Sequence record: KC801932
Strand: one strand, 5' to 3'
Source of the DNA: Escherichia phage Lw1
Length of the DNA: 64,000 nucleotides
In this document: positions 3,401-64,000 of the stretch, piece by piece
Numbering within the stretch: position 1 is the stretch's first letter
Layout: each line of letters begins with the position of its first letter
Notes under the pieces: model-generated
Database searches by the model: none
Seen by the model: the letters and a program-made list of their open reading frames with translations, nothing else
Told to the model about the DNA's origin: nothing
Position numbers and translations under genes: made by a program

Positions 3401-5620
3401 TTACAGTTTAACTTCTTTTTCTTCCAGAACGATTTCGCAATCGAATGTTGCATCTTTCCAGAACTCATGCGGGATGATTTTGTCTGCTTTAACCGATACT
3501 TTGGTTTCTTCAAAATCCAGATCCGCAAACCAGGCGTGGCCTACAACGATACCGTACATTACACGGCTCAGGCGCTTGTTCAGTGCGCGTACTTCGTTGA
3601 TGGTTGCCTTTGTTTCTTTATCAAGGTACTCGATTACCTTATCCTTGTCAAGCGCTGCGAGTTCAGCTTTAACAGCATCGTAAGCCCACAGGATGATCAG
3701 GTCGCCGTTGTTCAGTTTCTTCTTACCTTCGGCACGTTTCGCAACAGTTGCCGCTACAGCAGGAAGGGAGGAAACACCCTTGATTTTCAGATTCAGTTCT
3801 TTCGACATATAAACATCAGTCGAATCGGTACGGGTTACTTTCGGGGAGAATCCATAATCACGAATACCCTGTTCAGATAACCATTCACCAGCGGCTTCAC
3901 CGTATTTCTGTTTCAGACCTTCGGCATTACGTAAACCGATCGCGTCGTCACGGAAGAACTTCATCACCTTCTGACGACCTTTCAGGATTTCCAGACGGAT
4001 AGAGTCGTTTACATACTCTTTACCGGAGATCCCGCGAGTCATCGCACGGTTAACCAGAGGCAGACTTGTAAAGTCAACCAGTACCGACATGCGGTCTTCA
4101 CCGATTTTTGCCAGCGGCTTGATAGTCAAACCAGAAGCGCGAAGGTTTTTCAGTGTCGGAATATCGGTTTCCAGTGGCAGAACCTTAACGTTTACGATCC
4201 CATCTTTAACGATGGTGAAGTTACGCACCTGCTTAGTTTCGATTTTTTCCGGCAGTCCCAGTTCTTTCTGTTTGCTTTCTGGGATAGTTACGTAACCTTG
4301 CAGATCCGTGTTAATGGAAATGTTAGGACGTGAACTGTTGCCGACCAGATGTTTAACCGATACTTTGGTTGTTGTCTGGGTAAATTTCGGTGTCCATATT
4401 TCGTGCGTTACCATTTGTGCGGCTAATGCTTTGCGTTCTTCCGGTGTTTTCGCATTTGCGATCTGTTCTGACAGTTGATCCAGAGTATCATCTTCTTTCT
4501 GTACTGTCTGACGGCCTGTACGGTTGTACGCCCAGTGTTCAGAAGACAGGTCGATCACTGTGTCAGTTTCTGCCAGCAGTTCGAGAGCATCAACCAGAGT
4601 GAATGCGTTTTCGTCTGGAACCATGTTGTAATCAACACCTTCAATCAGACGTTTACCCGCATCAACTACCGCTTCCGCGATCAGGTCTTTGGCGTTGGAA
4701 TAATCCTGCTTAGTAAAGCAGTTATCGTAAGCCTTAATCAGACGAACGTCACCGACTTTTTTCAGCACTTTCCATGCCAGATCAGGGTTCATGGTATGAA
4801 GTGCATGATACAGAACCACGTACAGAACCTGTTCACCTTCCATCGTAGCCGGATCAAATCCGTCGATATCGTTGATTGCGTTTTCACCCAGCGCCCAGAT
4901 GTTTTTGATGTGTTCTGGAACCAGTACAACACCATTTGCAGCGTTCAGGACATACACGCGCCCTTCGTCCAGATAGATCGCATGGGTAGCGTCACCGACC
5001 TTGACTTCAACACGCGGTGATGTTTGCGCGGTGATGATTTCAGCAAATGCTGGCTCGTATGCGTCGAAACCTTCAACGAATTTATGCAATGCGTTGGTTG
5101 CTTCTGCCATTTTTTCCAGCAGCGGACGGTTTACATAATAACCGTATTCCAAGAACGCGATGCTGTTAAAAGTCAGCGGGAGAACCGCACACGCTTTCAG
5201 GATGTCATCGGTACGCCAGCAGTTATCATAACCATCCGTAAGGAAGATCAGGCTGTTCAGATTGCCGTTTTCGGATTGCAGATCAGTTGCGATTTCCGCA
5301 GCCAGGTTCAGAGGTTCAACGAAACCAGTACAACCAGTGGGTTTCAGATAGCGGTCGATCGCGGTGCAGATGTTAGTCAGATCGGATACGTTGCTAACCT
5401 TCTCACCACGGAACACAGTACCGTAATCGCCTTTGCTGGAGAAGTACAGAATCGAAACTGTATCATCCTGTTTAACCAGACTCGCCAGGTTTGCTTTCAG
5501 ATGTTTACGGATTTTCGGGAGTTCGTTATACATAGAACCGGAAACGTCACACACGAAAACGTGGTTGGTCGGAGTCGGCTTCGATACTGCGTTTTTGAAT
5601 TCGATATTTGTAATTGACAT
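3401..5620 (-). CDS. von Willebrand factor A (vWA) domain protein, 739 aa
   Basis: N-terminal MIDAS-type motif VFVCDVSGSM ... LYFSS ... FLTDG (DxSxS..T..D); long C-terminal region of unknown function. Confidence 0.6.
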   Translation of the reverse strand: MSITNIEFKNAVSKPTPTNHVFVCDVSGSMYNELPKIRKHLKANLASLVKQDDTVSILYFSSKGDYGTVFRGEKVSNVSDLTNICTAIDRYLKPTGCTGFVEPLNLAAEIATDLQSENGNLNSLIFLTDGYDNCWRTDDILKACAVLPLTFNSIAFLEYGYYVNRPLLEKMAEATNALHKFVEGFDAYEPAFAEIITAQTSPRVEVKVGDATHAIYLDEGRVYVLNAANGVVLVPEHIKNIWALGENAINDIDGFDPATMEGEQVLYVVLYHALHTMNPDLAWKVLKKVGDVRLIKAYDNCFTKQDYSNAKDLIAEAVVDAGKRLIEGVDYNMVPDENAFTLVDALELLAETDTVIDLSSEHWAYNRTGRQTVQKEDDTLDQLSEQIANAKTPEERKALAAQMVTHEIWTPKFTQTTTKVSVKHLVGNSSRPNISINTDLQGYVTIPESKQKELGLPEKIETKQVRNFTIVKDGIVNVKVLPLETDIPTLKNLRASGLTIKPLAKIGEDRMSVLVDFTSLPLVNRAMTRGISGKEYVNDSIRLEILKGRQKVMKFFRDDAIGLRNAEGLKQKYGEAAGEWLSEQGIRDYGFSPKVTRTDSTDVYMSKELNLKIKGVSSLPAVAATVAKRAEGKKKLNNGDLIILWAYDAVKAELAALDKDKVIEYLDKETKATINEVRALNKRLSRVMYGIVVGHAWFADLDFEETKVSVKADKIIPHEFWKDATFDCEIVLEEKEVKL

Positions 5621-12593: not shown

Positions 12594-12650
12594 TCGTTTC
12601 GATGCCCCTAATATAACAAAAGCCCTCACGCGAACGCAAGGGCTTTTTTA
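12594..12650 (-). promoter_or_regulatory. PeSL-like cassette 2
   Basis: hairpin aaaagccctcacgcgaacgcaagggctttttt + TGTTATATT + conserved leader. Confidence 0.6.
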
Positions 12651-12750
12651 ATCTTTTTATCGACAGAAAGGACAACTAAACTTATCGCCGCTTCCACCAT
12701 GACGAGGACAGCAAATTTTTTCGATTGGTGTCATTGTTAAAATTTTCATT

Positions 12751-13809
12751 TTAAAGTCCAGTAAACGCAACGATAATCTGATAGTGGTCATCGAAGAACT
12801 CACCACGTTTCTGTTTGACTTCGTGCATAGGCATCCAGAACGCCTCTGCTGCATCGTCAGCGCCTCCCATAATACGGGGCAGACTTCCATCATTGTTAGG
12901 CTCTAACTTGATGTATTGCGCTACAGTCGGTTTTGAGAAGTGTACGGAACGCTTCGGATGGTCGAACAGCATAGAATTGCGGATTGAACCACGGATAACC
13001 TTTTCAGGAACCTTGATCCGAACTTCTTCGAGCAATTCGCGGATCGCACAATCCAGGAACGTTTCATTCGCGTTTTTGTGTCCACCTGGCAGGGCTAATG
13101 CGCCTTTACCTGGTGCAAACTTACGACGAATCACTAACACATGGTTATTACAAACAACCACGCTATCACCAGTACAACAGTTTAACGCGTCGGGGTATGG
13201 GTACGCTTTGAACTTCTCCAGTTCATCTTCCCATTTCTCGAACTCGTAGTACAAGCGCCAGAACGTATCGGTCATCATCCATCCGTTAAGAGAACCCACG
13301 ACAGCAGCAGGAACATAACGGGCGATCTTCTCGTCCCATCCATTTTTATGTAAAAAGATGGTTGGACGCAGGTCGGTAGCAGATAAATCTTTGCCGTCAA
13401 CCTTAACCGGATCAACCGGAACATGAGTCCATCCGAACGCTTTAAGCCAGTACGAATCAGCATCTTTTTCGTAACCGTAGATCGCGATGTTATCGCCTTT
13501 GGTTTCGTCGATTGCTGTACGAACAGAGGTTTTCCATTTTTCTTCATTGTAAAGGTAATCTGGAATCGGCTTGAATTGCACACGGGCTACATCTTCGTAT
13601 TTGAACTCAGACAGTAACCAGCTTGTAATCATACGTTCCCGTTCGGTTGCCGTCAGCGGGTTTAAAACGTTAGGGTAAGCATAAGCTGAACCCAGGAGGA
13701 TATAAACGGTCTTCGACTCTTCCAGTGCTTTACGCACCATTGCCGCGTGACCATTATGGAAGGGTTGGAATCTGCCAATTACGACAGCTTTATCAAATTT
13801 GTATTTCAT
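12751..13809 (-). CDS. bifunctional NMN adenylyltransferase / Nudix hydrolase (NatV/NadM-like)
   Basis: N-terminal (H/T)xGH nucleotidyltransferase motif GRFQPFHNGH; C-terminal Nudix box GGHKNANETFLDCAIRELLEEV; start set at MKYKFDK with GTGGAG RBS. Confidence 0.8.
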   Translation of the reverse strand: MKYKFDKAVVIGRFQPFHNGHAAMVRKALEESKTVYILLGSAYAYPNVLNPLTATERERMITSWLLSEFKYEDVARVQFKPIPDYLYNEEKWKTSVRTAIDETKGDNIAIYGYEKDADSYWLKAFGWTHVPVDPVKVDGKDLSATDLRPTIFLHKNGWDEKIARYVPAAVVGSLNGWMMTDTFWRLYYEFEKWEDELEKFKAYPYPDALNCCTGDSVVVCNNHVLVIRRKFAPGKGALALPGGHKNANETFLDCAIRELLEEVRIKVPEKVIRGSIRNSMLFDHPKRSVHFSKPTVAQYIKLEPNNDGSLPRIMGGADDAAEAFWMPMHEVKQKRGEFFDDHYQIIVAFTGL

Positions 13810-13834
13810 AACGTGCTCCACGTTTAAAGGGTAA

Positions 13835-13933
13835 TCATAAAACAGACGCAATAATCAATACACCAAGCAAACCGCCAATAAAGCCGAAGAATAGCGAAAT
13901 GAAGATAGATAAGATGATCTGTTTTATGTTCAT
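13835..13933 (-). CDS. possible 32-aa hydrophobic peptide
   Basis: ATG..TGA ORF below ORF-track size cut-off; single predicted TM helix; low confidence. Confidence 0.25.
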   Translation of the reverse strand: MNIKQIILSIFISLFFGFIGGLLGVLIIASVL

Positions 13934-13985
13934 TATAGTATTCTCGTTCTAAGAATCAAGCCCCCAGTGCGGGGGCTTTAAAATC

Positions 13986-14912
13986 TTATTTACGGGAATC
14001 GAAAATCACTTTACCAGCGTAATCCGAACCCATGACAGTCTGAGGTACACCACCTTTATAACGGGTAGAGTAGTTCATCTGTACATCCAGTTCTTTCCAG
14101 CGGATCATTTCTGGGGTAATTGTGCGTTGCAGTACGGCGTTAGCCTCCGCTTCTTTCTTCGCTGCGTACAGTTTAGCATCAGCATCACGTTCGTTGGCAA
14201 TCGCATCGTTTTCACGCGCCTGACGATTTGCTTCCGCTTGTTTTACCTGTTGCTGTGAAGTCTGTTCGACTTTTGCCAGTTCCGCACGAGCGGCGTTAAC
14301 CTGTTCTTCACGAATTTTCGTGTTAGTTACCTGTTCCATGATAACATCCGGCAGGGTGATATCCTGCAAGAATACCTGTTTCACGGTGTAACCGTAAGGA
14401 CGCGCATACTCTTCGACTTCCTGTTGAATTGCGGTCTGCAACTGGTTCTGGATCTTAGCATCAAACAGATCCTGTGCTTTTGGAACCGATTTGCCGAACT
14501 CGCGAACGGTTGACAGCAGTTTTTCGGTTACATACTTATCCAGTGCCTGTTCCTGGTCTCCCGCGTTGATGCGGTTGATAGGCGCTTTGTTACCGTCAAA
14601 TTGCAGCATAACGGTCATATCAACAGTGGATTTAAACTTATCCTGTGAAGGAACCTGCAATTTATCGAACTTCTTCGCAATGTCTTTCGTGCTGAAAGTA
14701 TCGAAATCAGCCAGCGGGTTTACGATATGGAAACCAGGCAGTACAGGTTTCGGAGAAACCTTACCCATGAAGGTCTGAGTTTTGACCGTGCCGTCCTGTA
14801 CTACTGTAAAGGAGTTCGGAACCAGCCACAGTGCGGCTACTACGCCCAGAGCGATCAGAGTGGTTTTCTTCGGGTTGTTCAGGATAGTATTCATATTCAT
14901 AGTATGTCTCAT
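13986..14912 (-). CDS. SPFH/band-7 (prohibitin-like) domain membrane protein
   Basis: N-terminal TM helix LIALGVVAALWLV, then SPFH-like core and long Ala/Gln/Glu-rich coiled-coil tail. Confidence 0.55.
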   Translation of the reverse strand: MRHTMNMNTILNNPKKTTLIALGVVAALWLVPNSFTVVQDGTVKTQTFMGKVSPKPVLPGFHIVNPLADFDTFSTKDIAKKFDKLQVPSQDKFKSTVDMTVMLQFDGNKAPINRINAGDQEQALDKYVTEKLLSTVREFGKSVPKAQDLFDAKIQNQLQTAIQQEVEEYARPYGYTVKQVFLQDITLPDVIMEQVTNTKIREEQVNAARAELAKVEQTSQQQVKQAEANRQARENDAIANERDADAKLYAAKKEAEANAVLQRTITPEMIRWKELDVQMNYSTRYKGGVPQTVMGSDYAGKVIFDSRK

Positions 14913-20335: not shown

Positions 20336-21679
20336 TTAAAAGTTGTCTTCGACGAATGCTGCCAGGCGTCCACGATACACAGTATTCAGGATTATGTGAC
20401 TAGCATGGTCATATTCTTTAAGTTTTTCAACAGCATAGACAAAACCGTTGTTTACAGCAGTGTTTCGCGGGTTGTCAATCTGCTTAATATTCCCGCATAG
20501 TATCAGAAGTGTATTCTCTCCGCAACGGGAAATAATGGATTTTATTTCATGGTTGCTCAAGTTTTGACATTCGTCAACAATCAGCACTGAACCTTTACCA
20601 GGATCTGGGTGTCCGATAGAACGCCCACGGAAGTAATACAGGCTAGGGAACTGCACCACGCCTTTTTCCAGAAGTCCTTCAACGTACTTGTCAACTTCCG
20701 GTTGATCCTTAAACAGAATATTCAGGCTCGTGATACACGGTTCAACCGATGGTCGGAGTTTTTCACCCAGAGTACCAGGCAAGAACCCTATTTCACCAGA
20801 CAGCGGACTATCTGCCTTGACATACATCAGGTTTGCGAAGTGTCCCGCGTTAACCATGTGCATTGCGCCAGCAACCGCCAGCATTGTTTTACCCGAACCC
20901 GCCGCACCCATGATGGTCACAACGTCATTGTTCTTGTCCAGGATCGCATCAACGAATGACGCTTGCAGAGCATCGCGGGGCTGAATTGTTTTCATCAGCT
21001 TACGCTTTAACGCTTGTTCGTGCTTAATAGGCAACACTTCAAGCTGAAACTCTCCAGCAGCCACCACACGCCCTACAATCTCACCATCCGATAGAATGTA
21101 TTGGTTAGGGTAGAAATCCGCGTCAGGAAGCGATGAATACGTTATAACGGCAACAGGCCCGACATACTCCATGACTTCGACAGTTTCCCAGAACAGCGGC
21201 AGGTCGATATAACCTGAATACAACACATCACTATCTTTCAGCGAGTCATCGCCAGTGTATTGAAGAACCGGACAACCTTTAGACATCGCGATCAACAGCA
21301 TGTTAATGTCACGAGTCACCAGCGTTGCGCCCTGTTGAATACAGGTTGCAATGATCCGCGCATCCTGTTTATCGAGAGGGAACTCTTCGGGGCCGACATA
21401 ATCGACAATTTTGAGTGTTACACTTTCCGGTACTGCTGGGTTTGTTAAGTTTAACGAAACCCCTGTTTGGGTAATTGCTTCATAATTTTGTCCCAGGATT
21501 GCTTTGGACAATAGCCGGATCGCCAGTCGTGCTTCATGAGCGGTTCGCTCTTTGCTTTTCAGGTGATCCAGTTCTTCCATCGTTGCAGCAGTGATAATAA
21601 TTTCAGTATCAGGTTCGATGAAAGAGTAAACTGAATAGGGGTTCGAGATCAAAACGTTTGTATCGAGAACATATTTCAT
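20336..21679 (-). CDS. phoH: PIN-domain PhoH-like ATPase (YlaK-type)
   Basis: N-terminal PIN-like acidic core (LDTNVL...), Walker A GAAGSGKT, Walker B VDECQN. Confidence 0.8.
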   Translation of the reverse strand: MKYVLDTNVLISNPYSVYSFIEPDTEIIITAATMEELDHLKSKERTAHEARLAIRLLSKAILGQNYEAITQTGVSLNLTNPAVPESVTLKIVDYVGPEEFPLDKQDARIIATCIQQGATLVTRDINMLLIAMSKGCPVLQYTGDDSLKDSDVLYSGYIDLPLFWETVEVMEYVGPVAVITYSSLPDADFYPNQYILSDGEIVGRVVAAGEFQLEVLPIKHEQALKRKLMKTIQPRDALQASFVDAILDKNNDVVTIMGAAGSGKTMLAVAGAMHMVNAGHFANLMYVKADSPLSGEIGFLPGTLGEKLRPSVEPCITSLNILFKDQPEVDKYVEGLLEKGVVQFPSLYYFRGRSIGHPDPGKGSVLIVDECQNLSNHEIKSIISRCGENTLLILCGNIKQIDNPRNTAVNNGFVYAVEKLKEYDHASHIILNTVYRGRLAAFVEDNF

Positions 21680-24880: not shown

Positions 24881-25191
24881 TTACTTTTGATTCTGTTGCA
24901 TTCTTCCGCACACTCTTTTTCCGCAAGGATTTTGCGAACAACCGCGTTTCTGATTTTCCAGAGATAATCGATCATCTGCATATCTTCGGGAGTGTGATAA
25001 CCTTTCATATCGCATTCAAATACGATAGCATCGCGTTCTGACATTGCCATTATCGCGGTAGCCGAACAAATGGTCATCCCACTATATTTTTCAATCAACG
25101 ATTCCAGTGTACGCTTTTCTGCCGGAATGTCAACAGTTATCGGAACAGGACGGATTCTTGTAGTCGAATCGTCGAAGGATTGATAAATCAT
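24865..25191 (-). CDS. hypothetical protein (108 aa)
   Basis: ORF. Confidence 0.45.
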   Translation of the reverse strand: MIYQSFDDSTTRIRPVPITVDIPAEKRTLESLIEKYSGMTICSATAIMAMSERDAIVFECDMKGYHTPEDMQMIDYLWKIRNAVVRKILAEKECAEECNRIKSKWGVL

Positions 25192-26342
25192 TTTAACTCC
25201 ACTGCATAAACATCGGTTTCGGGGGCTTTGTGTACGCGCATATCTTTACCACATACCGCATAAGCCGGACAGTTGCGACAACCGTTATGATCCGTGTTGC
25301 CTGTCAGTTCTTTACGGAACTGTTTTGTTTTCGGGTGTTCCCAGATATCTTTGATAAAATCATCGGCTTCAAGGACATTCAAACCTTCACCCCAGCCACC
25401 TTCAACCCAACGTTCGGTAAACGAGCAAGGGAAGAATTCGCCTTTTTCGTTGATGTAAGAGCTAAACATCGTCGCTTCACAATCTTCCGCATACTGCTTG
25501 TATTGTTCGAAGTTCGGGTGTCCCTCCATCGCTTCAACGAAAGCTGGGGCTGAACAGCTATCGAATCCAAATCCTACACCAGAATCAAGGCAGTATTCAA
25601 CAAGTTTTTTGTATTGTTCGCGGGTGACTGTATCCCAGTTCTTACCACGTCCCTTTTGTTTCAGACCCAGGAACACGATCGCGTTGACTTGTTTCAGGCG
25701 CGGATCATTACGCACAGCATCAACAACGGTAAACGCATCATCATAGGTCTTTGAGCTAACCATGAAATGTAGGTTGATTTGCTGTTGTCCTGCTTCTGCC
25801 AGGTTTGCGACGGAATCGAAAGCAACATCGAAGCCAGCATGTTTATAAACCGATACTGCAACAGCCCCAGCAACCGCCGCTAAACGCGCTGCAACGTCTT
25901 TTGATACATCAGCAATGGTAAGGTTCGGTACAATGCCTTTAGAACGCGCATAGGCCATCATATCGAACATATCAGGGTTTGTTTGTCCCTGTGCATCAGC
26001 ACCGAGTGCGCATTGGGTTAACCAGGGCATTTTATCAATGATGGATTTGAAAGAAGCAAGATCCATATTGTAGCCGTTCGGGTTATTGGACTTGTAACAG
26101 AAACCACACAGCTTACCAGCGGGGCCATTACATTTAGTTGTGATCTCGATATCGAGGATAAAAGGAAAATGACTATAAATAGGATCGTCAGCAGGAGTTT
26201 TGCCCCAAGTCATCATATGACCTGTTTTCATATCAAAATTAAAATTAACCTCTTCGGAACGATAGATTTTCTTTCCTTTCGCTTCCAGTAGAAGTCCAAC
26301 AGGCGTTTTGATATGTTTGGCGTTTACTTTAACGTGTCTCAT
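25188..26342 (-). CDS. Fe-S protein, radical-SAM-like with C-terminal SPASM/twitch-like Cys motif
   Basis: ITTKCNGPAGKLCGFCY (Cx7Cx2C, rSAM-like TxxCN..C.FCY context) and C-terminal CRNCPAYAVC (Cx2Cx5C); start set at MRHVKV with GAGGT RBS. Confidence 0.45.
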   Translation of the reverse strand: MRHVKVNAKHIKTPVGLLLEAKGKKIYRSEEVNFNFDMKTGHMMTWGKTPADDPIYSHFPFILDIEITTKCNGPAGKLCGFCYKSNNPNGYNMDLASFKSIIDKMPWLTQCALGADAQGQTNPDMFDMMAYARSKGIVPNLTIADVSKDVAARLAAVAGAVAVSVYKHAGFDVAFDSVANLAEAGQQQINLHFMVSSKTYDDAFTVVDAVRNDPRLKQVNAIVFLGLKQKGRGKNWDTVTREQYKKLVEYCLDSGVGFGFDSCSAPAFVEAMEGHPNFEQYKQYAEDCEATMFSSYINEKGEFFPCSFTERWVEGGWGEGLNVLEADDFIKDIWEHPKTKQFRKELTGNTDHNGCRNCPAYAVCGKDMRVHKAPETDVYAVELK

Positions 26343-26354
26343 AGGAACCTCATA

Positions 26355-27083
26355 ATGTATTACGTTTACAGAATCACAAATGTTATAGAGAACAAGCACT
26401 ATTATGGATCAAGAAAACCTAAAAAGTCAATGCTTGCTTCCGACGATTTAGGGAAACACTATTTCAGTAGTTCCCGTGATAGTCATTTCATCCAAGATCA
26501 GAAGGAAAATCCAGGACACTACAAATATAAAGTAATCGTATCGGGGTTGTCAAGGGAAAAGGCGATGAAACTTGAGAAAAGGTTACACGAAATCTACAAG
26601 GTGGACACGAACCCACATTTTTATAACAAACACATACACAACAGCGTTGATTTTTCATGTACACCAGAAACAGGAAAGAAGATTTCACAAACACACCAGA
26701 AATATGCAGCAAAGAAAATTTCAGAATCACATAAAAGGCGATTCAAGGAAGGTATAGCATCACATAAAGGAGAGAACAACCCACGATACAACGATCATCG
26801 GTCTTATGAAGAGATACACGGAGAAGAAAAAGCGGAGACTATACGCAAAGCACAATCTGAATCAAGAAGAGGAAAAGGCAATTCCCGCGCGGTTACGTGG
26901 AAATTTACTTCCCCTAATGGAGAAGAATTTTTAGTTGAAGGAGAATGTAAAAAGTTTTGCAAAGACAGAAATATTTCCATGCGTAAACTGAAAACCTATC
27001 TGGGTGAAGTCATCACAACATGCGATAAACCCTACTATATCTCTAAGAATACCGTAGGATGGAAATTAGAAAAGATTATTTGA
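26355..27083 (+). CDS. GIY-YIG homing endonuclease (Seg-like)
   Basis: N-terminal MYYVYRITN...HYYGS (GIY..YIG), basic C-terminal DNA-binding region; lone plus-strand gene among minus-strand genes. Confidence 0.7.
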   Translation: MYYVYRITNVIENKHYYGSRKPKKSMLASDDLGKHYFSSSRDSHFIQDQKENPGHYKYKVIVSGLSREKAMKLEKRLHEIYKVDTNPHFYNKHIHNSVDFSCTPETGKKISQTHQKYAAKKISESHKRRFKEGIASHKGENNPRYNDHRSYEEIHGEEKAETIRKAQSESRRGKGNSRAVTWKFTSPNGEEFLVEGECKKFCKDRNISMRKLKTYLGEVITTCDKPYYISKNTVGWKLEKII

Positions 27084-32110: not shown

Positions 32111-32497
32111 TTATGCCTTTGGGACAACACCGAATGCCAGAAGACCCATACGATGATCGTTATCTGCCTCTTCACGGAAGAAATAGTATTGTTCATCGGA
32201 AATATCGATTACGGTGATACCCTCTTTCAGATACGGCAACAGATATAACGGGATCAGCATCAAATCAGATTCACTGCTCCATTTACGGAAACCCAGATTT
32301 TCCATTTCTTCCCGCGTCAAATCATTAGGATCTACCGGAAAGAAATTAGGCGATTTCATCAGGCGACCAGGAAGGTCACGAATATTGCTGATTGCGAATT
32401 CCGTTCCCCATGAAGTGTATTCAATAGGTTCGGCGGCACGGGTTGCGGTAGCAACGAGAATCATTTGGCACAGTTGAAAAGTATTTGGATTGCTCAT
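32111..32497 (-). CDS. hypothetical protein (128 aa)
   Basis: ORF. Confidence 0.45.
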   Translation of the reverse strand: MSNPNTFQLCQMILVATATRAAEPIEYTSWGTEFAISNIRDLPGRLMKSPNFFPVDPNDLTREEMENLGFRKWSSESDLMLIPLYLLPYLKEGITVIDISDEQYYFFREEADNDHRMGLLAFGVVPKA

Positions 32498-32907
32498 GAT
32501 ATAGATCCCACAAGTTTAGTCAGAAGGTGTCCCATAGTCTTACGCGCATGATCGCGGATTTCGCTATAAGGAACATATTTGAAACCATCCATTTCTGTTA
32601 TAGTTCGACCATTCTTAACGAAGGTTGACGCACAGAAACATTTTTCGGCTTCGGGGTAAGTATCGCCTTTGTAGACAAACAATGCAAGTTTTTTCTTGTT
32701 TGTATAGTCCAAAACACCCAGGCTGATCAGTTGGTCGGGGAACACTTCAAAGCCAGTTTCTTCGAAGCATTCACGAATAGCAGCATCAATATGGGCTTCG
32801 CCTTTTTCAACATGCCCCTTTGGGATATCCCAGTGGGGCGTTTCGGTAGCGTGACCCATTAGAATGCTGCCGTTATTCAGAAAGAGAATACCAGCAGACA
32901 ATTCCAT
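32494..32907 (-). CDS. Nudix hydrolase (NudE-like)
   Basis: Nudix box GHVEKGEAHIDAAIRECFEETG; start set at MELSAG. Confidence 0.8.
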   Translation of the reverse strand: MELSAGILFLNNGSILMGHATETPHWDIPKGHVEKGEAHIDAAIRECFEETGFEVFPDQLISLGVLDYTNKKKLALFVYKGDTYPEAEKCFCASTFVKNGRTITEMDGFKYVPYSEIRDHARKTMGHLLTKLVGSIS

Positions 32908-45547: not shown

Positions 45548-48500
45548 ATGATTAAAGCGCCGTCAATTACCAGTTTGCGCGTTGATAAACTGGCTGCTAA
45601 CTTCGTTTATTTGAAGTGGGATAGCGTCGGCATGGATTTTTACTATGTCGTGGAAATGGCTGAAACTCGCGGTGCGGGTGGTGCTGTGATTCCAGATGCG
45701 GATCTAACATGGTTCCAGTTGGGCTATGCGTATGTGAACGAATGGTTCTCTACTGCTGTGCAACCGGATAGCTTTTACAAATTCCGTATTAAGGTTACAC
45801 ATCAGGGATTTGAACCGTCTGATTGGGTTTACAGTGATGAACTCTGGACATTCACCCTTAACGCCTACGCATATTCAACCATGCGCGAATTTACACCAAG
45901 TGACGCATTTATAAACGAAAAATTCGCAAAGAACAATCAGAATTACGTGAATTTTAATACAGATGTGGTAATGGCAGCGTTGATGAAAGAAGACTTCGTG
46001 TTTTCTCCACTGTACACTGACGTATCCCAGATTAGTGATAAGATTCTTACACAGGAAAACTATCACGAGATCCAGGATCACATTGAACACGTTTGTAATG
46101 ACATTAACAGAACTTTTCTGGTAGCGTCAAACGGTTTGTTATATCTGTTTGAACGTTTTCAGAACATGGCTAAGGTATCCAATGACAAGGGGCAAACATG
46201 GCATTACTACAAGGCGTTTAACGACCGCGTAGGAAACCCCGTATCGCGCTCTGTAGCGTACCAAAGCACAAACACAACATATGTACTGGGTTATGACCGG
46301 ATCTTCTACGGGCGCACTTCAACGGATATTCGCTGGTCTGCGGACGATGTGCGATTCTCTGCTGATGACGTTACGTTTGCTAAACTGGGGAACCAGGCAG
46401 GGCTTGATTTCGACGTTGACTCATACAACACATTTGCAAAACTGCCTGGTGATGTATCGAAATATGCAGAAGCAATTGCATGTTCTGATGAATGGCTTTA
46501 TGTTGTAGCAAAAAACGTTATGCGTCGTATCGCTCTGAAACAGACACCGATCGACACCGATCCGAGTTCACCAACGTTCGGGGAAAAGATTTTCGACACA
46601 ACAAGCTATACTGTTGTACCAGGGAATGATAAAATTGTTGTTAAGAAAATGGATGTAATGAACGGTATATTATACGCGCTCGTTTCGGGTGAAGTAAAAA
46701 CAGCTCTACAAGATCCGACAAAACCGGAAAACGTTGTTCCGTCTGATGATTCTGGTGTGTATCAATGGCAAGAAGACACTAAAACTTTTGTTCGCCTGTA
46801 CGGTAATACAGAAGAGGAACGTTTCTTCATTGAACACGAATATACCAATATGTCAACAAACGGGAAAGAGATTTTTATCTCTGTTGCAAATTACAAGTAT
46901 CCTGGGACTTTGCCAGATCCAGAACTGTTGGTCACTAACCCTGAATTAATCAGTGCTGTGAAATATGATTTGCGTCCTGGTTACACTGCCAGCCTGTCGA
47001 TTAACTTCGCAACTATTCGCGCACATATCGACGACCCTACAGTATGGGAGTTCGGGCCGCAAGAATATTACAACGAAGCAAACTATAGCTGGTTTTTCCG
47101 TGATTCCGTTCGTACATGGATCACTAATGACAACCGTCCGTTGGTGGTATATCCGAAAATTGTATATGAACTCGTTACGGATACTGCGGGACCGTCCTCT
47201 ACGTTGCGCGTCAACAAAGAAGTATGGGATCGCGGACATGTTACGATTTACATAAACAACATCAAGTTCACAGGGTTCACAAAGTATACAAACGGCGTGT
47301 TGCTGTATAAAAGTTCCGGTGAAATTATCGGGTTCTTTGAACTGAGTTATCGTGCTCGTGATAGTCTAACGATTTTCTGGAAACCAGACAACACATTGCT
47401 GATTGCTGATTTAATCCAACAGGAACGCGAACAGCCTTACGTACCGGATCTGTCTTCTGGACTGATTGACCCAGATTTAAGCCATATGATTACTCGCTTT
47501 GCACCTCAAAGCTATCTGGATCAGGAATACTTCGAAAAGTTCGGTGAATACTATTTGCAATTCGTTTCTCTGGGTGAAAACACCTACTATAACAAGTTGC
47601 TGAACCTAATCAGGAACAAATACCCACGCGAGAAAAACAGCGTTGAATATCTGTGGTCGGAAGTAAACCGTCGCAATATCTACCTAGATAAAACGAAGCG
47701 TGATCAGGTTGTACGATTCTTTGAATCCCGTGCTAGTGATTTTTATTCTACGAAGGGGATCGAGGCAAGCTATAAATTCCTGTTTAAACTCCTGTATAAC
47801 GAAGATGTGTCTGTAGAGATTGAAAGTTCAAACACCCTCGAATATGATATTTTGGTTTCTTCAACGAATATCAGTCAGGATATTGTAGGACGGACGATCT
47901 ATACACCAACTGCACGAGCAAACGTAACGTACATCGAACGAGATTACAAAGACGGGCAACTGCGTTGGTCGATGACGTTACACAACGTGATCGGTAACTT
48001 CCTGGAAGGGCAGGTCGTTAAGTCTGAAAAGACTAATTTCACAGGTAACATACTGCGTGGTGTTCGTGGTAAGCAAATGGCGAATAACTCGATCGACTAC
48101 TTCAACCGTGGGCGCTCGTATTATGTGATGAAAATCCGTTCAAACCTTCCGGCTTCCCGTTATAAGGATGACGTGTTACGGTTTGTGCATCCGGTAGGAT
48201 TTGGCTTTATCGGTATTACCATGCTTACGGTTTTCATTAACTCCGGTTTATCGATGACGCATAGTGAAACGATAATTGATATCCTTCGAAACTATCGTTT
48301 TGATAGTGGGTATCCTAAGTTCTGGCCCGATCGTGTTGCGCGTCTGGATGGTAACGGAAACCAGACATTTGACCTTGTGACAGGCGAAGCATTGTACGAA
48401 CCTCACCCTAACGCGGGGCAACCGTTCGATGTTCCTCCAGAATACGACATTGACGAACAACCGCTGAATGGTGTATTGCCGTCCGCGCGTAGATTCGATC

Positions 48501-48631
48501 AAAGTCCGCTGTTCGATAGTTCTGCGGTTAAATACTCTCAGTTCCGTAACTTAGTGGAAAAACGATTGAAAGACGACGCGGGTAATCCTCGCGATCCGAA
48601 TCCACCGACTCAGATAAAGGTAGGAAAATAA
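45548..48631 (+). CDS. 7: baseplate wedge subunit gp7
   Basis: 1027 aa (T4 gp7 about 1032) in conserved 6-7-8 order. Confidence 0.75.
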   Translation: MIKAPSITSLRVDKLAANFVYLKWDSVGMDFYYVVEMAETRGAGGAVIPDADLTWFQLGYAYVNEWFSTAVQPDSFYKFRIKVTHQGFEPSDWVYSDELWTFTLNAYAYSTMREFTPSDAFINEKFAKNNQNYVNFNTDVVMAALMKEDFVFSPLYTDVSQISDKILTQENYHEIQDHIEHVCNDINRTFLVASNGLLYLFERFQNMAKVSNDKGQTWHYYKAFNDRVGNPVSRSVAYQSTNTTYVLGYDRIFYGRTSTDIRWSADDVRFSADDVTFAKLGNQAGLDFDVDSYNTFAKLPGDVSKYAEAIACSDEWLYVVAKNVMRRIALKQTPIDTDPSSPTFGEKIFDTTSYTVVPGNDKIVVKKMDVMNGILYALVSGEVKTALQDPTKPENVVPSDDSGVYQWQEDTKTFVRLYGNTEEERFFIEHEYTNMSTNGKEIFISVANYKYPGTLPDPELLVTNPELISAVKYDLRPGYTASLSINFATIRAHIDDPTVWEFGPQEYYNEANYSWFFRDSVRTWITNDNRPLVVYPKIVYELVTDTAGPSSTLRVNKEVWDRGHVTIYINNIKFTGFTKYTNGVLLYKSSGEIIGFFELSYRARDSLTIFWKPDNTLLIADLIQQEREQPYVPDLSSGLIDPDLSHMITRFAPQSYLDQEYFEKFGEYYLQFVSLGENTYYNKLLNLIRNKYPREKNSVEYLWSEVNRRNIYLDKTKRDQVVRFFESRASDFYSTKGIEASYKFLFKLLYNEDVSVEIESSNTLEYDILVSSTNISQDIVGRTIYTPTARANVTYIERDYKDGQLRWSMTLHNVIGNFLEGQVVKSEKTNFTGNILRGVRGKQMANNSIDYFNRGRSYYVMKIRSNLPASRYKDDVLRFVHPVGFGFIGITMLTVFINSGLSMTHSETIIDILRNYRFDSGYPKFWPDRVARLDGNGNQTFDLVTGEALYEPHPNAGQPFDVPPEYDIDEQPLNGVLPSARRFDQSPLFDSSAVKYSQFRNLVEKRLKDDAGNPRDPNPPTQIKVGK

Positions 48632-54386: not shown

Positions 54387-56675
54387 ATGATTTCAAAACT
54401 TAACCCGTTACCAAAGATCCCGTTTGTTGATGGTGTCCCTTCGGACACCACACAAACCCCGATCAGTTGGATTCTTAACGGTGAGACTCTCGACGGGGCC
54501 AAAACAAAGGTCACTAGCGAGGGTTCTTTAAACAGATGCGGCGTTCTGGTTCAAAAGAACGCGGTGCAATTGGAAACAAACACCATTACGCAAACGGCAA
54601 AAATCAACGAAGTTATCGATCAAGTTAACCTCATTAGTGAAAACCTCGCGGCTATTTCTGATGAAAGCGTGATCGAAAAACTGGATCAGGTCGTTGCTGA
54701 TGTGGAAGTGTTAAAAGTCGATATGACTGCGGTTCAAGGTTCTACCGCAAGCAATACCCTGAAAATTCAGGATCTCGATAAAGATATCGGGACATGGGAT
54801 GCTACAACAGATCCAAAACACCGAACCATTCGCAAAGATATTATTTTTCTGAAAGGGGAAATGGGCGCATATCCTGGATTTAATCAGGACGGTGACGTAG
54901 ATCCTACTTCAACTGGCTCTGGAATGAAATACAAAATCATGACGAACGCGCAAGCGATTTCGATTCATGAAGGGCGTATTACCAGACTGGAAGACGATTG
55001 GGCCAACTCAGATGTAGGCCATTTAACTGATGAAGTTACCGACTTGCGTAATGAAATGGGGCCGAAACATTTAGCAACGTTTGAATCGGTGTACGTTCGT
55101 CTGAATAAAATTGGTACGGATATCACTGGGATTAATACCGAACTGACAGAAATCAACCAATATATCGGTCGTACTGGTACAGGTGGTTCTGGAAGTATTT
55201 CTGCTCGAATGACTACGGCAGAAACGAATATTGTTACTCTGCAAACGCAGATGAATGATTCTTCCGTTGGTGTTCTTCCTCGCGTAATTTCTCTTGAAAA
55301 CCAAGTTGGGAATTCGCAGGTTCCGGGTAGTATTCGTTATGATATCAGTAATATCAAACGTGACATTAGCGACCTGAATATGGTTGTTGGTGAATCAAGC
55401 GATGAAGGGCTACGGGGCGAAATGGCTCAGGTTATGTCCGATATCGGTACAGATTCACAACCTACAAGCATTAAAGGCCGTCTGCTTAACGTAGAGAATA
55501 CGCAGCGCGACGATCACCAGCGTTTGATTGATGTCGAATCTATTGTTGGTAACACCTCAAGCGGACTTGTTGCGGCTAACATCGCAATGGGTAAAGCGGT
55601 TTATGGTGATGCAACCAGTTCAGATCCGTTCCTCAAAGACGGTATTCAGAAAACGACTCGCGATAGCAAAACTGCAATTGGTGTCAACACTACAGGTTCT
55701 GAAACTGGAATCTATAAGTTGATTTCCGATCTGACTGCTCGTGTTGCTGCTCTGGAAAGTGGTTCTGGTAGTGATCTCGAACAGCGTGTTTCCGATCTTG
55801 AAGTCAATAAAGCATCGCATCAGGACGTTACAAACGCACTGGTTCCGTATATTACTGAAACTGAGGCCGATATCAAGTACGAACCGAAGAAGATTCCGCT
55901 TGCGTTCACTCAAAACCTCGTTGGTCGAAATGATTATATCGAAGGTGATGACATTTCTCTGATGGTTACTGTATCTGGTGGTAAAGTCCCTTATGCGTAC
56001 CAGTGGAAGAAAGACAACGCGAACGTAGGTACGAACGCATCAAGTTTGATGATCCAGACCATCACATCGGCTAACGCTGGCGTGTATAAGGTTGAAGTAA
56101 CTGACGCAGATAACACGGTTATCACTTCTAACGAATTGACAATTGCTGTTTATCCGGTTCCTCAGTTCGATACTAACCTGGCTGATAAATCAGTGGTTGA
56201 CGGTGATCCTCTGACTCTGGAAGTTGTGTATAGCGGCGGTAAACCTTCGTACACTTACGAGTGGTTCAAAGATAACTCTGTTATCTCTGGGGCAACATCA
56301 GCAACATTTACCAAATCTGCGGTTACAAGTGCCGATGCTGGTGAATACTATGTTTCTGTGACTGACTCGATGAACAACCAAAATGATTCAGTGAAAGCAA
56401 ATGTGACGGTAACACCACGTCCTGCACTGGCATTCACTACGGATCTGAGTTCTACTAAATCATATAGCACAGGTGCTGATATGGACCTTGCTGTTGTCGT
56501 AACTGGTGGTAAAACACCATATACGTACAAATGGTTTAAAGACACTGCGGAAATTTCCGGTCAGACAGGCGCAAGCCTTACCACTGTAGCAGAAGATGGA
56601 GTGTATAAAGTCGAAGTGACTGATGCACTAACGACTAAAATCACATCAACTGAATGCACGGTAACTGTTGCATAA
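54387..56675 (+). CDS. wac: fibritin (wac, whisker) with three C-terminal Ig-like domains
   Basis: N-terminus LP.IPFVDG......ISWI.NGE..GA.T...SEGS.NR like recalled T4 Wac; central coiled-coil heptads; three about 85-aa repeats (GGK.PY.Y.WFKD....G.....T..A..GVYKVEVTD) replace the foldon. Confidence 0.75.
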   Translation: MISKLNPLPKIPFVDGVPSDTTQTPISWILNGETLDGAKTKVTSEGSLNRCGVLVQKNAVQLETNTITQTAKINEVIDQVNLISENLAAISDESVIEKLDQVVADVEVLKVDMTAVQGSTASNTLKIQDLDKDIGTWDATTDPKHRTIRKDIIFLKGEMGAYPGFNQDGDVDPTSTGSGMKYKIMTNAQAISIHEGRITRLEDDWANSDVGHLTDEVTDLRNEMGPKHLATFESVYVRLNKIGTDITGINTELTEINQYIGRTGTGGSGSISARMTTAETNIVTLQTQMNDSSVGVLPRVISLENQVGNSQVPGSIRYDISNIKRDISDLNMVVGESSDEGLRGEMAQVMSDIGTDSQPTSIKGRLLNVENTQRDDHQRLIDVESIVGNTSSGLVAANIAMGKAVYGDATSSDPFLKDGIQKTTRDSKTAIGVNTTGSETGIYKLISDLTARVAALESGSGSDLEQRVSDLEVNKASHQDVTNALVPYITETEADIKYEPKKIPLAFTQNLVGRNDYIEGDDISLMVTVSGGKVPYAYQWKKDNANVGTNASSLMIQTITSANAGVYKVEVTDADNTVITSNELTIAVYPVPQFDTNLADKSVVDGDPLTLEVVYSGGKPSYTYEWFKDNSVISGATSATFTKSAVTSADAGEYYVSVTDSMNNQNDSVKANVTVTPRPALAFTTDLSSTKSYSTGADMDLAVVVTGGKTPYTYKWFKDTAEISGQTGASLTTVAEDGVYKVEVTDALTTKITSTECTVTVA

Positions 56676-59996: not shown

Positions 59997-62336
<2,340 letters not shown>

Positions 62337-62354
62337 ATTAGAGGAAATTCTATA

Positions 62355-64000
62355 ATGGCTTTACAATCTCCAGGTATTGAAACCAAAGAAACATCGGTAC
62401 AATCTACCGTTGTTCGAAATTCAACTGGTCGCGCTGCCATTGTTGGTAAATTTTCATGGGGGCCAGCTTATCAGATCCGTCAGATTTCTAACGAAGTCGA
62501 ACTGGTAAACTATTTTGGTTCCCCAGACAACCTAACCGCTGATTATTTCATGAGTGCTGTTAACTTCTTGCAGTACGGTAATGATCTCCGTGTGGTTCGT
62601 GTTGTCGATAAAGATGCCGCAAAAAACGCAAGCGCAATTTTTAACCAGATCAAAACAACCATTGCTTCGCAGGGTTCCAACTACACCGTTGGCGACGTAA
62701 TTAAGGTAAAATATAGCAACAACGTAGTTGAAGAAAATGGTAAAGTGTCAAAAGTTGACAGTAACGGCAAAATCCTTGCGGTAGTCATCCCAAGCGAAAA
62801 AATCGTTGCTCGTGCAAAACAGATCGGGACTTATCCAGATATTTCTACTGGCTGGACTACTGAAATCGTTTCTCAGTCTTCTGGTGTGTCTGCGTCAATC
62901 ACGATCGATGGTATCGAAAGCGATTCTGGTATCACTCTGCTGAACCTGGATATTGCTAAAGAAACCATTCAAGGAACTGCGTTCCAGACACTGACCCAGA
63001 AATACCAGATCCCATCTGTTGTGGCTCTGTATCCTGGCGAACTGGGTTCTACTGTAGAGGTGGAGATTATCTCCAAAGCTGCTTACGATTCTGGCGCTAT
63101 GATTTCCGGTTTCCCTTCTGGGATCTCCGTTAAAAACAGCGGTCGCTCTGTGATGACTTATGGTCCACAGACCGAAAACCAGTACGCTTTTGTTGTGCGT
63201 CGTGGTGGTATTGTACAAGAATCTTTCATCGTGTCAACAGAAAAAACCGACAAAGATATCTACGGCGTAAACATCTATATGGATGACTTTTTCGCTAACG
63301 GTGGTTCACAGTACGTATTCGGTACTTCTATGAACTGGCCTAAAGGCTTCTCCGGTATTCTAGAATTTGGTGGTGGTTTGTCCTCAAACGACACCGTAGG
63401 CGCTGATGAACTGATGACTGGTTGGGATATGTTCGCTGATCGCGAAGCCCTTCACGTCCCGCTGCTGATTGCTGGTGCTTGTGCTGGTGAAACCGTAGAA
63501 GTAATGTCTACTGTTCAGAAGCATGTTATCTCGATCGGTGACGAACGTCAGGATTGTACTGTGTTTGTATCGCCTCCGCGTTCTCTTCTGGTGAACATTC
63601 CTCTTGCTCAGGCAGTGGATAACATCGTTGAATGGCGTATGGGATATACAATCAGTGGTAACACTCCGGTAGACAACAACCTGAACGTAAGTTCAAGCTA
63701 TGGCTTCCTGGATGGTAACTATAAATATCAGTATGATAAATACAATGACGTGAACCGCTGGGTTCCGCTGGCAGGTGATATCGCTGGCCTGTGTGTTTAC
63801 ACTGATAGCGTTGCGCAACCGTGGATGTCTCCGGCTGGTTACAACCGTGGTCAGATCCGTAACTGCATTAAACTGGCTATTGAACCGCGTACTGCACACC
63901 GTGACGCGATGTATCAAGTTCAGATTAACCCGGTAACAGGTTTTGCAGGTGGCTCTGGTTTCGTTCTGTTCGGTGATAAAACACTGACTAATGTTCCGAG
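62355..64000 (+). CDS. 18: tail sheath protein gp18 (3'-truncated by window end)
   Basis: MALQSPGIETKETSVQSTVV.NSTG.AA..GKF.WGPA.QI.Q..NEV.LVN.FG and FLQYGNDLRVVR recalled from T4 gp18; TATAAATT 16 nt upstream of ATG. Confidence 0.9.
   Translation, partial: MALQSPGIETKETSVQSTVVRNSTGRAAIVGKFSWGPAYQIRQISNEVELVNYFGSPDNLTADYFMSAVNFLQYGNDLRVVRVVDKDAAKNASAIFNQIKTTIASQGSNYTVGDVIKVKYSNNVVEENGKVSKVDSNGKILAVVIPSEKIVARAKQIGTYPDISTGWTTEIVSQSSGVSASITIDGIESDSGITLLNLDIAKETIQGTAFQTLTQKYQIPSVVALYPGELGSTVEVEIISKAAYDSGAMISGFPSGISVKNSGRSVMTYGPQTENQYAFVVRRGGIVQESFIVSTEKTDKDIYGVNIYMDDFFANGGSQYVFGTSMNWPKGFSGILEFGGGLSSNDTVGADELMTGWDMFADREALHVPLLIAGACAGETVEVMSTVQKHVISIGDERQDCTVFVSPPRSLLVNIPLAQAVDNIVEWRMGYTISGNTPVDNNLNVSSSYGFLDGNYKYQYDKYNDVNRWVPLAGDIAGLCVYTDSVAQPWMSPAGYNRGQIRNCIKLAIEPRTAHRDAMYQVQINPVTGFAGGSGFVLFGDKTLTNVP

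Follow-up and report, generated by a model that had tools for sequence, protein, structure and literature searches.

The natV gene of Escherichia phage Lw1 encodes a protein whose sequence fully supports its assignment as a bifunctional NMN adenylyltransferase (NMNAT)-Nudix enzyme of the NatV/NadM type, as found in the phage NadV + NatV NAD+ salvage pathway. We propose that this gene very probably constitutes the Nmnat half of the two-enzyme pathway formed by NadV and NatV (NARP2), which by homology would counter NAD+-depleting defences. Lw1 has a genome of 176,227 bp and belongs to the RB43 group (PMC3861415); the window analysed here is a stretch of 64,000 nucleotides of its sequence record KC801932. 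The Lw1 gene is already known, and the published list of NARP2 phages already includes Lw1.

The natV gene and its product

The initial annotation had placed an NMNAT-Nudix coding sequence at positions 12751–13809 of the window. This interval proved exact, with the gene on the minus strand, and both of the motifs that had been named, GRFQPFHNGH and a Nudix box, were found in the translated product. The minus-strand translation of the interval is uninterrupted, starts with MKYKFDKAVVIGRFQPFHNGH and runs from an ATG at 13809–13807 to a TAA stop at 12753–12751; the plus-strand translation of the same interval contains many stops. The protein is identical (100%) to the annotated Lw1 protein P0001 and is the orthologue of RB16p129, of the NatV/NadM-Nudix type. 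Of eight other window proteins compared, six match Lw1 proteins exactly, among them Lw1_gp114, gp130, gp195, the short tail fibre, the whisker protein and PhoH, and two gave no exact match. We rejected a longer, TTG-initiated ORF (extending to 13851), which has no Shine-Dalgarno sequence and overlaps an upstream small ORF; the annotations of both Lw1 and RB16 start at the ATG at 13809. The gene is surrounded by a minus-strand rI/tk/vs/nrdC.11 region, and regions of this type hold typical T4 early genes. The features of the gene and of its product are the following:

12751–13809, minus strand: coding sequence of the bifunctional NMN adenylyltransferase/Nudix (ADP-ribose pyrophosphatase-type) protein, 352 aa plus stop
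13816–13819, minus strand: Shine-Dalgarno sequence GGAG, read from the sequence, 6 nt 5' of the natV ATG
13351–13803, minus strand: NMNAT domain (HIGH-superfamily nucleotidyltransferase), aa 3–153, delimited by NCBIfam NF010365 (aa 3–153) and aligned with the NMNAT domains of 2qjo and 2qjt
13747–13758, minus strand: H-x-G-H motif H18-N19-G20-H21, the ATP-binding/catalytic signature, with H18, G20 and H21 invariant in 15 sequences
13366–13383, minus strand: second NMNAT motif S-x-T-x-x-R, SATDLR at aa 143–148, with R148 invariant and T145 present in at least 90% of the sequences
12790–13164, minus strand: Nudix hydrolase domain, aa 216–340, Pfam PF00293 (E 7e-15), aligned with the Nudix domains of 2qjo and 2qjt
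13015–13083, minus strand: Nudix box GHKNANETFLDCAIRELLEEVRI, aa 243–265, of the form G-x5-E-x7-R-E-L-x-E-E-x-R-I

Both solved homologues align with the protein over its full length, in collinear fashion: Synechocystis slr0787 (2qjo) matches aa 2–350 with chain residues 4–338 (E 7.6e-54), and Francisella NadM (2qjt) gives an E-value of 6.5e-46. Among phage proteins, NatV of phi-pp2 (species Schizotequatrovirus KVP40) is 40.5% identical over 348 aa, and PHROG 395 matches the full length at 5e-100. The Pfam family PF01467 (CTP_transf_like, cytidylyltransferase-like) is found at aa 10–70 (E 1.5e-8), and the top NCBIfam matches are all models named 'bifunctional nicotinamide-nucleotide adenylyltransferase/Nudix', matched end to end. 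Given these Pfam, NCBIfam and PHROG 395 matches, the NMNAT-Nudix identity is real and far beyond chance. The protein scores below the curated cut-off of all seven NCBIfam PRK05379 equivalog models (best 265 versus 397 bits), and we therefore assign it to the phage clade (PHROG 395) and not to any of the narrow bacterial subfamilies. The sequence features that define the NadM-Nudix/NatV family are all present, namely HxGH, SxTxxR, the Nudix box and full-length collinearity. Orthologues in RB16, GAP161 and many further phages are already annotated as bifunctional NMNAT/Nudix, and numerous records still name them 'cytidyltransferase' or 'hypothetical protein'.

The GRFQPFHNGH motif corresponds to aa 12–21, with HNGH at aa 18–21, and SATDLR aligns with SSTAIR in slr0787 and NATEFR in Francisella NadM. 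The Nudix motif quoted in the initial annotation, GGHKNANETFLDCAIRELLEEV, sits at aa 242–263. Across 15 homologues, down to 40% identity, the invariant positions comprise R13, H18, G20, H21 and R148 in the NMNAT part, and G242, G243, E249, R257, E258, L259, E261 and E262 in the Nudix part, where some 20 residues besides the Nudix box are also invariant across the family. The box follows the textbook Nudix consensus except for an R in place of the penultimate G, a change also seen in slr0787 (EETRL). Substitution of the catalytic His or of the Nudix Glu residues had been named as grounds for abandoning the assignment; on alignment to 2qjo, 2qjt and the 15 homologues none of them is substituted, and both domains thus look fully competent, as far as can be judged from the alignment.

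The NadV partner in Lw1 and its relatives

The window contains no Nampt-sized gene, as had been noted from the sequence, and both a domain scan of its ORFs and a six-frame tblastn search came back empty. A Pfam scan detected a NAPRTase/Nampt domain in none of 10 window ORFs of at least 380 aa, which correspond to VWA, PIN-PhoH, SPASM/radical-SAM, gp5, gp6, gp10, gp12-like, fibritin and large terminase proteins, and to one ORF with no Pfam match; an eleventh ORF of this size (45548–48631), outside the Pfam scan, was covered by the tblastn search. That search, run over the whole window with the NadV proteins of RB16 and IME-CF2, found neither NadV nor a remnant of it (best E = 4.5). A human NAMPT sequence served only as a bait for phage NadV genes, and the NadV sequences of IME-CF2 (477 aa) and RB16 then took its place.

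The partner is reported from elsewhere in the same genome. Table S2 of Osterman et al. ('Phages reconstitute NAD+ to counter bacterial immunity', bioRxiv 10.1101/2024.02.11.579819) gives the sequence of a Lw1 Nampt, KC801932_00235, which it classes as 'Nmnat-associated'. The 399 residues compared are 92.5% identical to RB16 NadV and 95.2% identical to IME-CF2 NadV, and among them are the Nampt motifs LHDFGARG, RPDSG and GMGGGLLQ. Lw1 NadV was not among the 40 sampled members of a 154-member NadV cluster at 90% identity. On the basis of the published supplementary table and of synteny in relatives, Lw1 encodes NadV. The window DNA is 84–93% identical over long stretches to that of the Pseudotevenvirus phages RB16, RB43, CfP1, Miller and IME-CF2, reaching 99.4% identity to RB16 at its right end. 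Since the last base of the window corresponds to RB16 position 129,442, and RB16 NadV occupies 150,521–151,954, NadV of Lw1 is expected about 21 kb to the right of the window; by synteny with RB16 it would lie about 72 kb from natV, on the other strand, between the srd/rnlB side and dam/nrdC. The two genes have the following positions in relatives:

RB16: NMNAT-Nudix 77,775–78,836; NadV 150,521–151,954; opposite strands
Miller: NMNAT-Nudix 79,270–80,325; NadV 150,578–152,008
RB43: NMNAT-Nudix 78,941–79,996; NadV 150,873–152,303
GAP161: NMNAT-Nudix 76,122–77,168; NadV 149,632–151,062

The distance between NadV and the NMNAT-Nudix gene is 70–72 kb in every close relative examined (RB16, RB43, Miller, CfP1, IME-CF2 and GAP161). 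Relatives with NadV include RB16, RB43, Miller, CfP1, IME-CF2, GuL6, GAP161 and others, and tblastn recovered a full-length NadV in each close relative, with 89–100% identity to that of IME-CF2. The initial annotation had presented the enzyme as lacking an adjacent NadV partner. With a Lw1 Nampt in Table S2 and NadV in all close relatives, this angle turns out to be an artefact of the 64-kb window, and the first of the two explanations offered at the time, a partner located elsewhere, is the correct one. T4-like phages do not generally keep the two genes side by side: phi-pp2, a phage of the KVP40 type, also has no NadV in the 4 kb around its NatV gene. Because the two genes are non-adjacent in the T4-like phages examined, a NatV gene that looks orphaned in 64 kb of sequence should not be taken to have lost its partner.

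The co-occurrence of the two genes extends well beyond these relatives. The phage collection has 435 records with a NatV homologue and 429 with a close NadV homologue, and the hosts of the two sets are distributed almost identically. A published survey found NadV in every NadM-containing phage, and Nmnat is also present in 94% of the phages with a KVP40-type Nampt (10.1101/2024.02.11.579819). This strict co-occurrence argues for NadV and NatV being a functional unit.

Transcription signals and small ORFs around natV

Three further elements frame the gene, two of which are candidate transcription signals:

13932–13959, minus strand: sigma-70-type (T4 early-like) promoter candidate TTGATT-16-TATAAT, matching the consensus at 10 of 12 positions
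12618–12647, minus strand: intrinsic-terminator-like hairpin 3' of natV, with a 13 bp stem and a 4-nt loop followed by a T-rich tail, predicted dG -18.9 kcal/mol
13978–13958: stable hairpin (dG -16), 8 nt past the stop of the upstream SPFH/band-7 gene

The KP15 counterpart of the promoter candidate is a perfect consensus, TTGACA-16-TATAAT, and both the consensus match and the conservation across genera are suggestive of a functional promoter. The terminator-like hairpin is kept in RB16, RB43, GAP161 and KP15, as is the Shine-Dalgarno sequence. Taken with its own predicted promoter and terminator, natV would seem to form an independent early-type transcription unit, as these signals suggest.

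The Pseudotevenvirus orthologues (RB16p129, RB43ORF138c) are 87–97% identical to the Lw1 protein (97% for RB16, 87–90% for RB43), and those of the KP15 group 73%. Orthologues in Pseudotevenvirus, Slopekvirus and Karamvirus share the gene order of Lw1 (SPFH gene, natV, small ORFs) within the rI/tk/nrdC.11 early region, and the promoter, Shine-Dalgarno sequence and terminator are likewise common to them. They present no functionally significant difference from Lw1, and the 3' flank is mosaic.

Between the SPFH gene and natV, the minus strand holds a hydrophobic ORF of 32 codons, MNIKQIILSIFISLFFGFIGGLLGVLIIASVL (13933–13835). Its conservation reaches from Lw1 to the Slopekvirus KP15 and follows a coding-like pattern, the variable sites being distributed 8:1:13 by codon position and the codon changes relative to KP15 comprising 10 synonymous and 5 conservative ones; the records of RB16, RB43, GAP161 and KP15 carry no annotation of it. 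This predicted membrane micropeptide might belong either to the natV unit or to the neighbouring SPFH gene. On the other side, Lw1 and RB43 have an ORF of 30 codons with Cys and His residues after the natV stop; GAP161 lacks it, and other DNA takes its place in RB16 and KP15. The window also holds a second Nudix gene, of the T4 NudE type, at 32497–32907.

Proposed role and comparison with known systems

In the proposed pathway, NadV would convert nicotinamide and PRPP to NMN, and the NMNAT domain of NatV would, by homology, convert NMN and ATP to NAD+. The Nudix domain would act as an ADP-ribose/NAD(H) pyrophosphatase, as do its KVP40 and bacterial homologues, and would probably serve in the clearance or recycling of ADP-ribose and in tuning the NAD+ level. 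Together, NadV and NatV would maintain NAD+ during infection and could defeat defences that deplete NAD+, type I Thoeris and DSR2 among them. While the domain architecture, the intact catalytic residues, the orthology and the presence of NadV in Lw1 and its relatives come from the present comparison, the activities and the anti-defence role that we infer for the Lw1 enzymes are transferred from the roughly 40% identical KVP40 NatV, slr0787 and Francisella NadM. The KVP40 NARP2 pair renders type I Thoeris and DSR2 ineffective and raises NAD+ during infection (10.1101/2024.02.11.579819). Lw1 presents the genomic combination that defines NARP2, an Nmnat homologous to KVP40 NatV and, via Table S2, a Nampt of the KVP40 clade.

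That Lw1 lacks NadV, and that its enzyme works alone on host-derived NMN (for instance from NAD-dependent DNA ligase) or on ADP-ribose, might be read from a 64-kb window free of NadV and its remnants and from the apparent independence of natV as a transcription unit. Yet the Lw1 Nampt KC801932_00235 is listed as 'Nmnat-associated', all close relatives examined have NadV 70–72 kb away, at a site that the window does not reach, and no NadM-containing phage of the published survey was without NadV. There is thus no need to invoke an orphan enzyme, with the Lw1 Nampt listed and NadV carried by the relatives, and we consider one extremely improbable. We give practically no credence to the idea that the protein is another nucleotidyltransferase and not an NMNAT, as the 'cytidyltransferase' label in RefSeq and PHROG would have it. 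The Pfam family is indeed named 'Cytidylyltransferase-like', and many orthologue records carry that label or 'hypothetical protein', but such a generic label is just the name of the Pfam/PHROG superfamily. NMNAT/NadM models top every library, NMNAT enzymes rank first among the solved structures, the protein has the SxTxxR motif of NMNATs, and its orthologues include the KVP40 NatV group, which is characterised biochemically.

The balance between the two domains deserves more attention. The main selected role could be the destruction of ADP-ribose, of ADPR-derived molecules or of NAD(H), with the NMNAT activity being secondary and NatV partly independent of NadV. The invariance of the Nudix box and of some 20 further residues of the Nudix domain would fit such a role, as would the separation of natV and NadV by 72 kb on opposite strands. 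The Nudix domain of KVP40 NatV is moreover said to favour ADP-ribose, NAD+ and NADH, a preference reportedly described by Lee et al. in J Bacteriol in 2017. A regulation of NAD+ levels by the Nudix domain has also been proposed (PMC9503650). However, conservation is no less strict in the NMNAT motifs, the tight genomic pairing with NadV points to selection on NMN adenylylation, and a separate Nudix gene of the T4 NudE type is already available at 32497–32907, so that we regard a primarily hydrolytic role as very unlikely. The wide separation of the genes and the predicted promoter of natV leave some room for a job of NatV that does not depend on NadV. This might consist in re-adenylylating NMN released by the host's NAD-dependent ligase, or in clearing ADP-ribose through the Nudix domain to ribose-5-phosphate and on to PRPP, which would close a loop from ADPR and nicotinamide to NAD+; the ADP-ribose would stem from defence NADases or from the phage's own ADP-ribosyltransferases. 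None of the observations calls for such a job, and we consider it unlikely, at about the level of an outside chance.

The preferred reading, in which NatV completes the NARP2 pathway begun by NadV, has little significance beyond a correct annotation, the pathway being published and characterised and Lw1 being catalogued. The KVP40 pair is reportedly toxic when cloned in E. coli. The pair of the RB43 group offers a convenient native system for NARP2 genetics, as these phages infect E. coli and other Enterobacteriaceae.

Compared to known systems, the Lw1 protein most resembles KVP40 NatV (Lee, Li & Miller 2017; Osterman et al. 2024), which has the same two domains and a similar length (about 340–352 aa). 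Both are encoded by T4-like (Straboviridae) phages, and both have a non-adjacent NadV/Nampt in the genome; they differ in host, Vibrio for KVP40 and enterobacterial for Lw1, and share about 40% identity. KVP40 carries further pyridine-nucleotide genes. The HxGH, SxTxxR and Nudix box motifs are also common to slr0787 (2QJO) and Francisella tularensis NadM (2QJT, 2R5W), which, unlike the phage protein, are cellular housekeeping or salvage enzymes. Phage-encoded NAD+ reconstitution is likewise achieved by NARP3, composed of the NadR-like Bas30_86 and a PnuC transporter (Sci Adv 2026, PMC13464706), and by NARP1 (Adps and Namat). In NARP3, too, a HIGH-superfamily domain catalyses the closing NMNAT step, but this domain is fused to a ribosylnicotinamide kinase instead of a Nudix domain, and its input is imported nicotinamide riboside instead of the product of NadV. 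NARP1, in turn, relies on ADPR-PP chemistry and operates without an NMNAT.

A putative micropeptide gene upstream of natV

On the minus strand, the interval between natV, the NMNAT-Nudix gene, and the SPFH/band-7 gene upstream of it holds a short reading frame and a hairpin:
13986-14912 (-), SPFH/band-7 gene, upstream of natV
13958-13978 (-), GC-rich hairpin, AAGCCCCC-loop-GGGGGCTT, dG -16 kcal/mol, 8 nt past the SPFH gene stop
13835-13933 (-), conserved hydrophobic, single-TM-like ORF of 32 codons, MNIKQIILSIFISLFFGFIGGLLGVLIIASVL, with the SPFH/band-7 gene on one side and natV on the other

The 32-codon ORF carries no annotation in the records of the related phages RB16, RB43, GAP161 and KP15. 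Its variable sites are split 8:1:13 by codon position, and its codon changes relative to KP15 comprise 10 synonymous and 5 conservative ones, a pattern that suggests a genuine micropeptide gene. Since its ATG overlaps the -10 element of the predicted natV promoter, its translation would need transcripts reading through from the SPFH gene. The hairpin overlaps the -35 element of the same promoter candidate; five phages keep its stem, with a different loop sequence in each. Because of its weak T-run, the hairpin was not picked up by the terminator scan.

Naming in public records is uneven here: RefSeq labels the SPFH/band-7 gene 'lipoprotein', and natV orthologues appear inconsistently as 'cytidyltransferase', 'ADP-ribose pyrophosphatase', 'bifunctional protein' or 'hypothetical protein'.

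The natV 3' flank and mosaic relatedness

A second short frame lies on the other side of natV:
12657-12749 (-), Cys/His-rich ORF of 30 codons, MKILTMTPIEKICCPRHGGSGDKFSCPFCR, directly 3' of natV

It starts 1 nt past the natV stop (TAAAATG), ends just ahead of the terminator, and possibly encodes a mini zinc-ribbon peptide. RB43 has this ORF with the C..H...CPFC pattern retained; it is missing from GAP161, and unrelated DNA takes its place in RB16 and KP15. The site looks like a mosaic indel hotspot. The natV 3' flank resembles RB43, not RB16. Judged by identity, relatedness along the window is mosaic: positions 60000-64000, the terminase/tail-sheath end, are 99.4% identical to RB16, whereas positions 1-25000 reach only ~92% to RB16 and ~90% to Citrobacter phages.

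Further genes of the window

Five other genes deserve mention:
3401-5620 (-), Lw1_gp114, 739 aa, von Willebrand factor A domain at the N-terminus
20336-21679 (-), PIN-domain and PhoH-like ATPase fusion, 447 aa (Pfam: PIN_4, aa 3-141; PhoH, aa 232-436)
25188-26399 (-), SPASM-domain (radical-SAM-type) protein, 403 aa
32497-32907 (-), stand-alone Nudix hydrolase of T4 NudE type, 82% identical to RB16p172
54387-56675 (+), fibritin/whisker protein, 762 aa

Lw1_gp114 and the SPASM-domain protein both lie within an early region rich in hypothetical genes, and neither has a known role in phages. The PIN-PhoH fusion is conserved in the RB43 group. The stand-alone Nudix hydrolase is the second in the window, separate from the NadM-type Nudix domain of natV. 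Beyond its Fibritin_C region, towards the C-terminus, the fibritin/whisker protein carries SprB-type repeats together with Ig-like ones (Pfam: Ig_3, Ig_2, I-set; aa 592-671), an unusual decoration when compared to T4 Wac.
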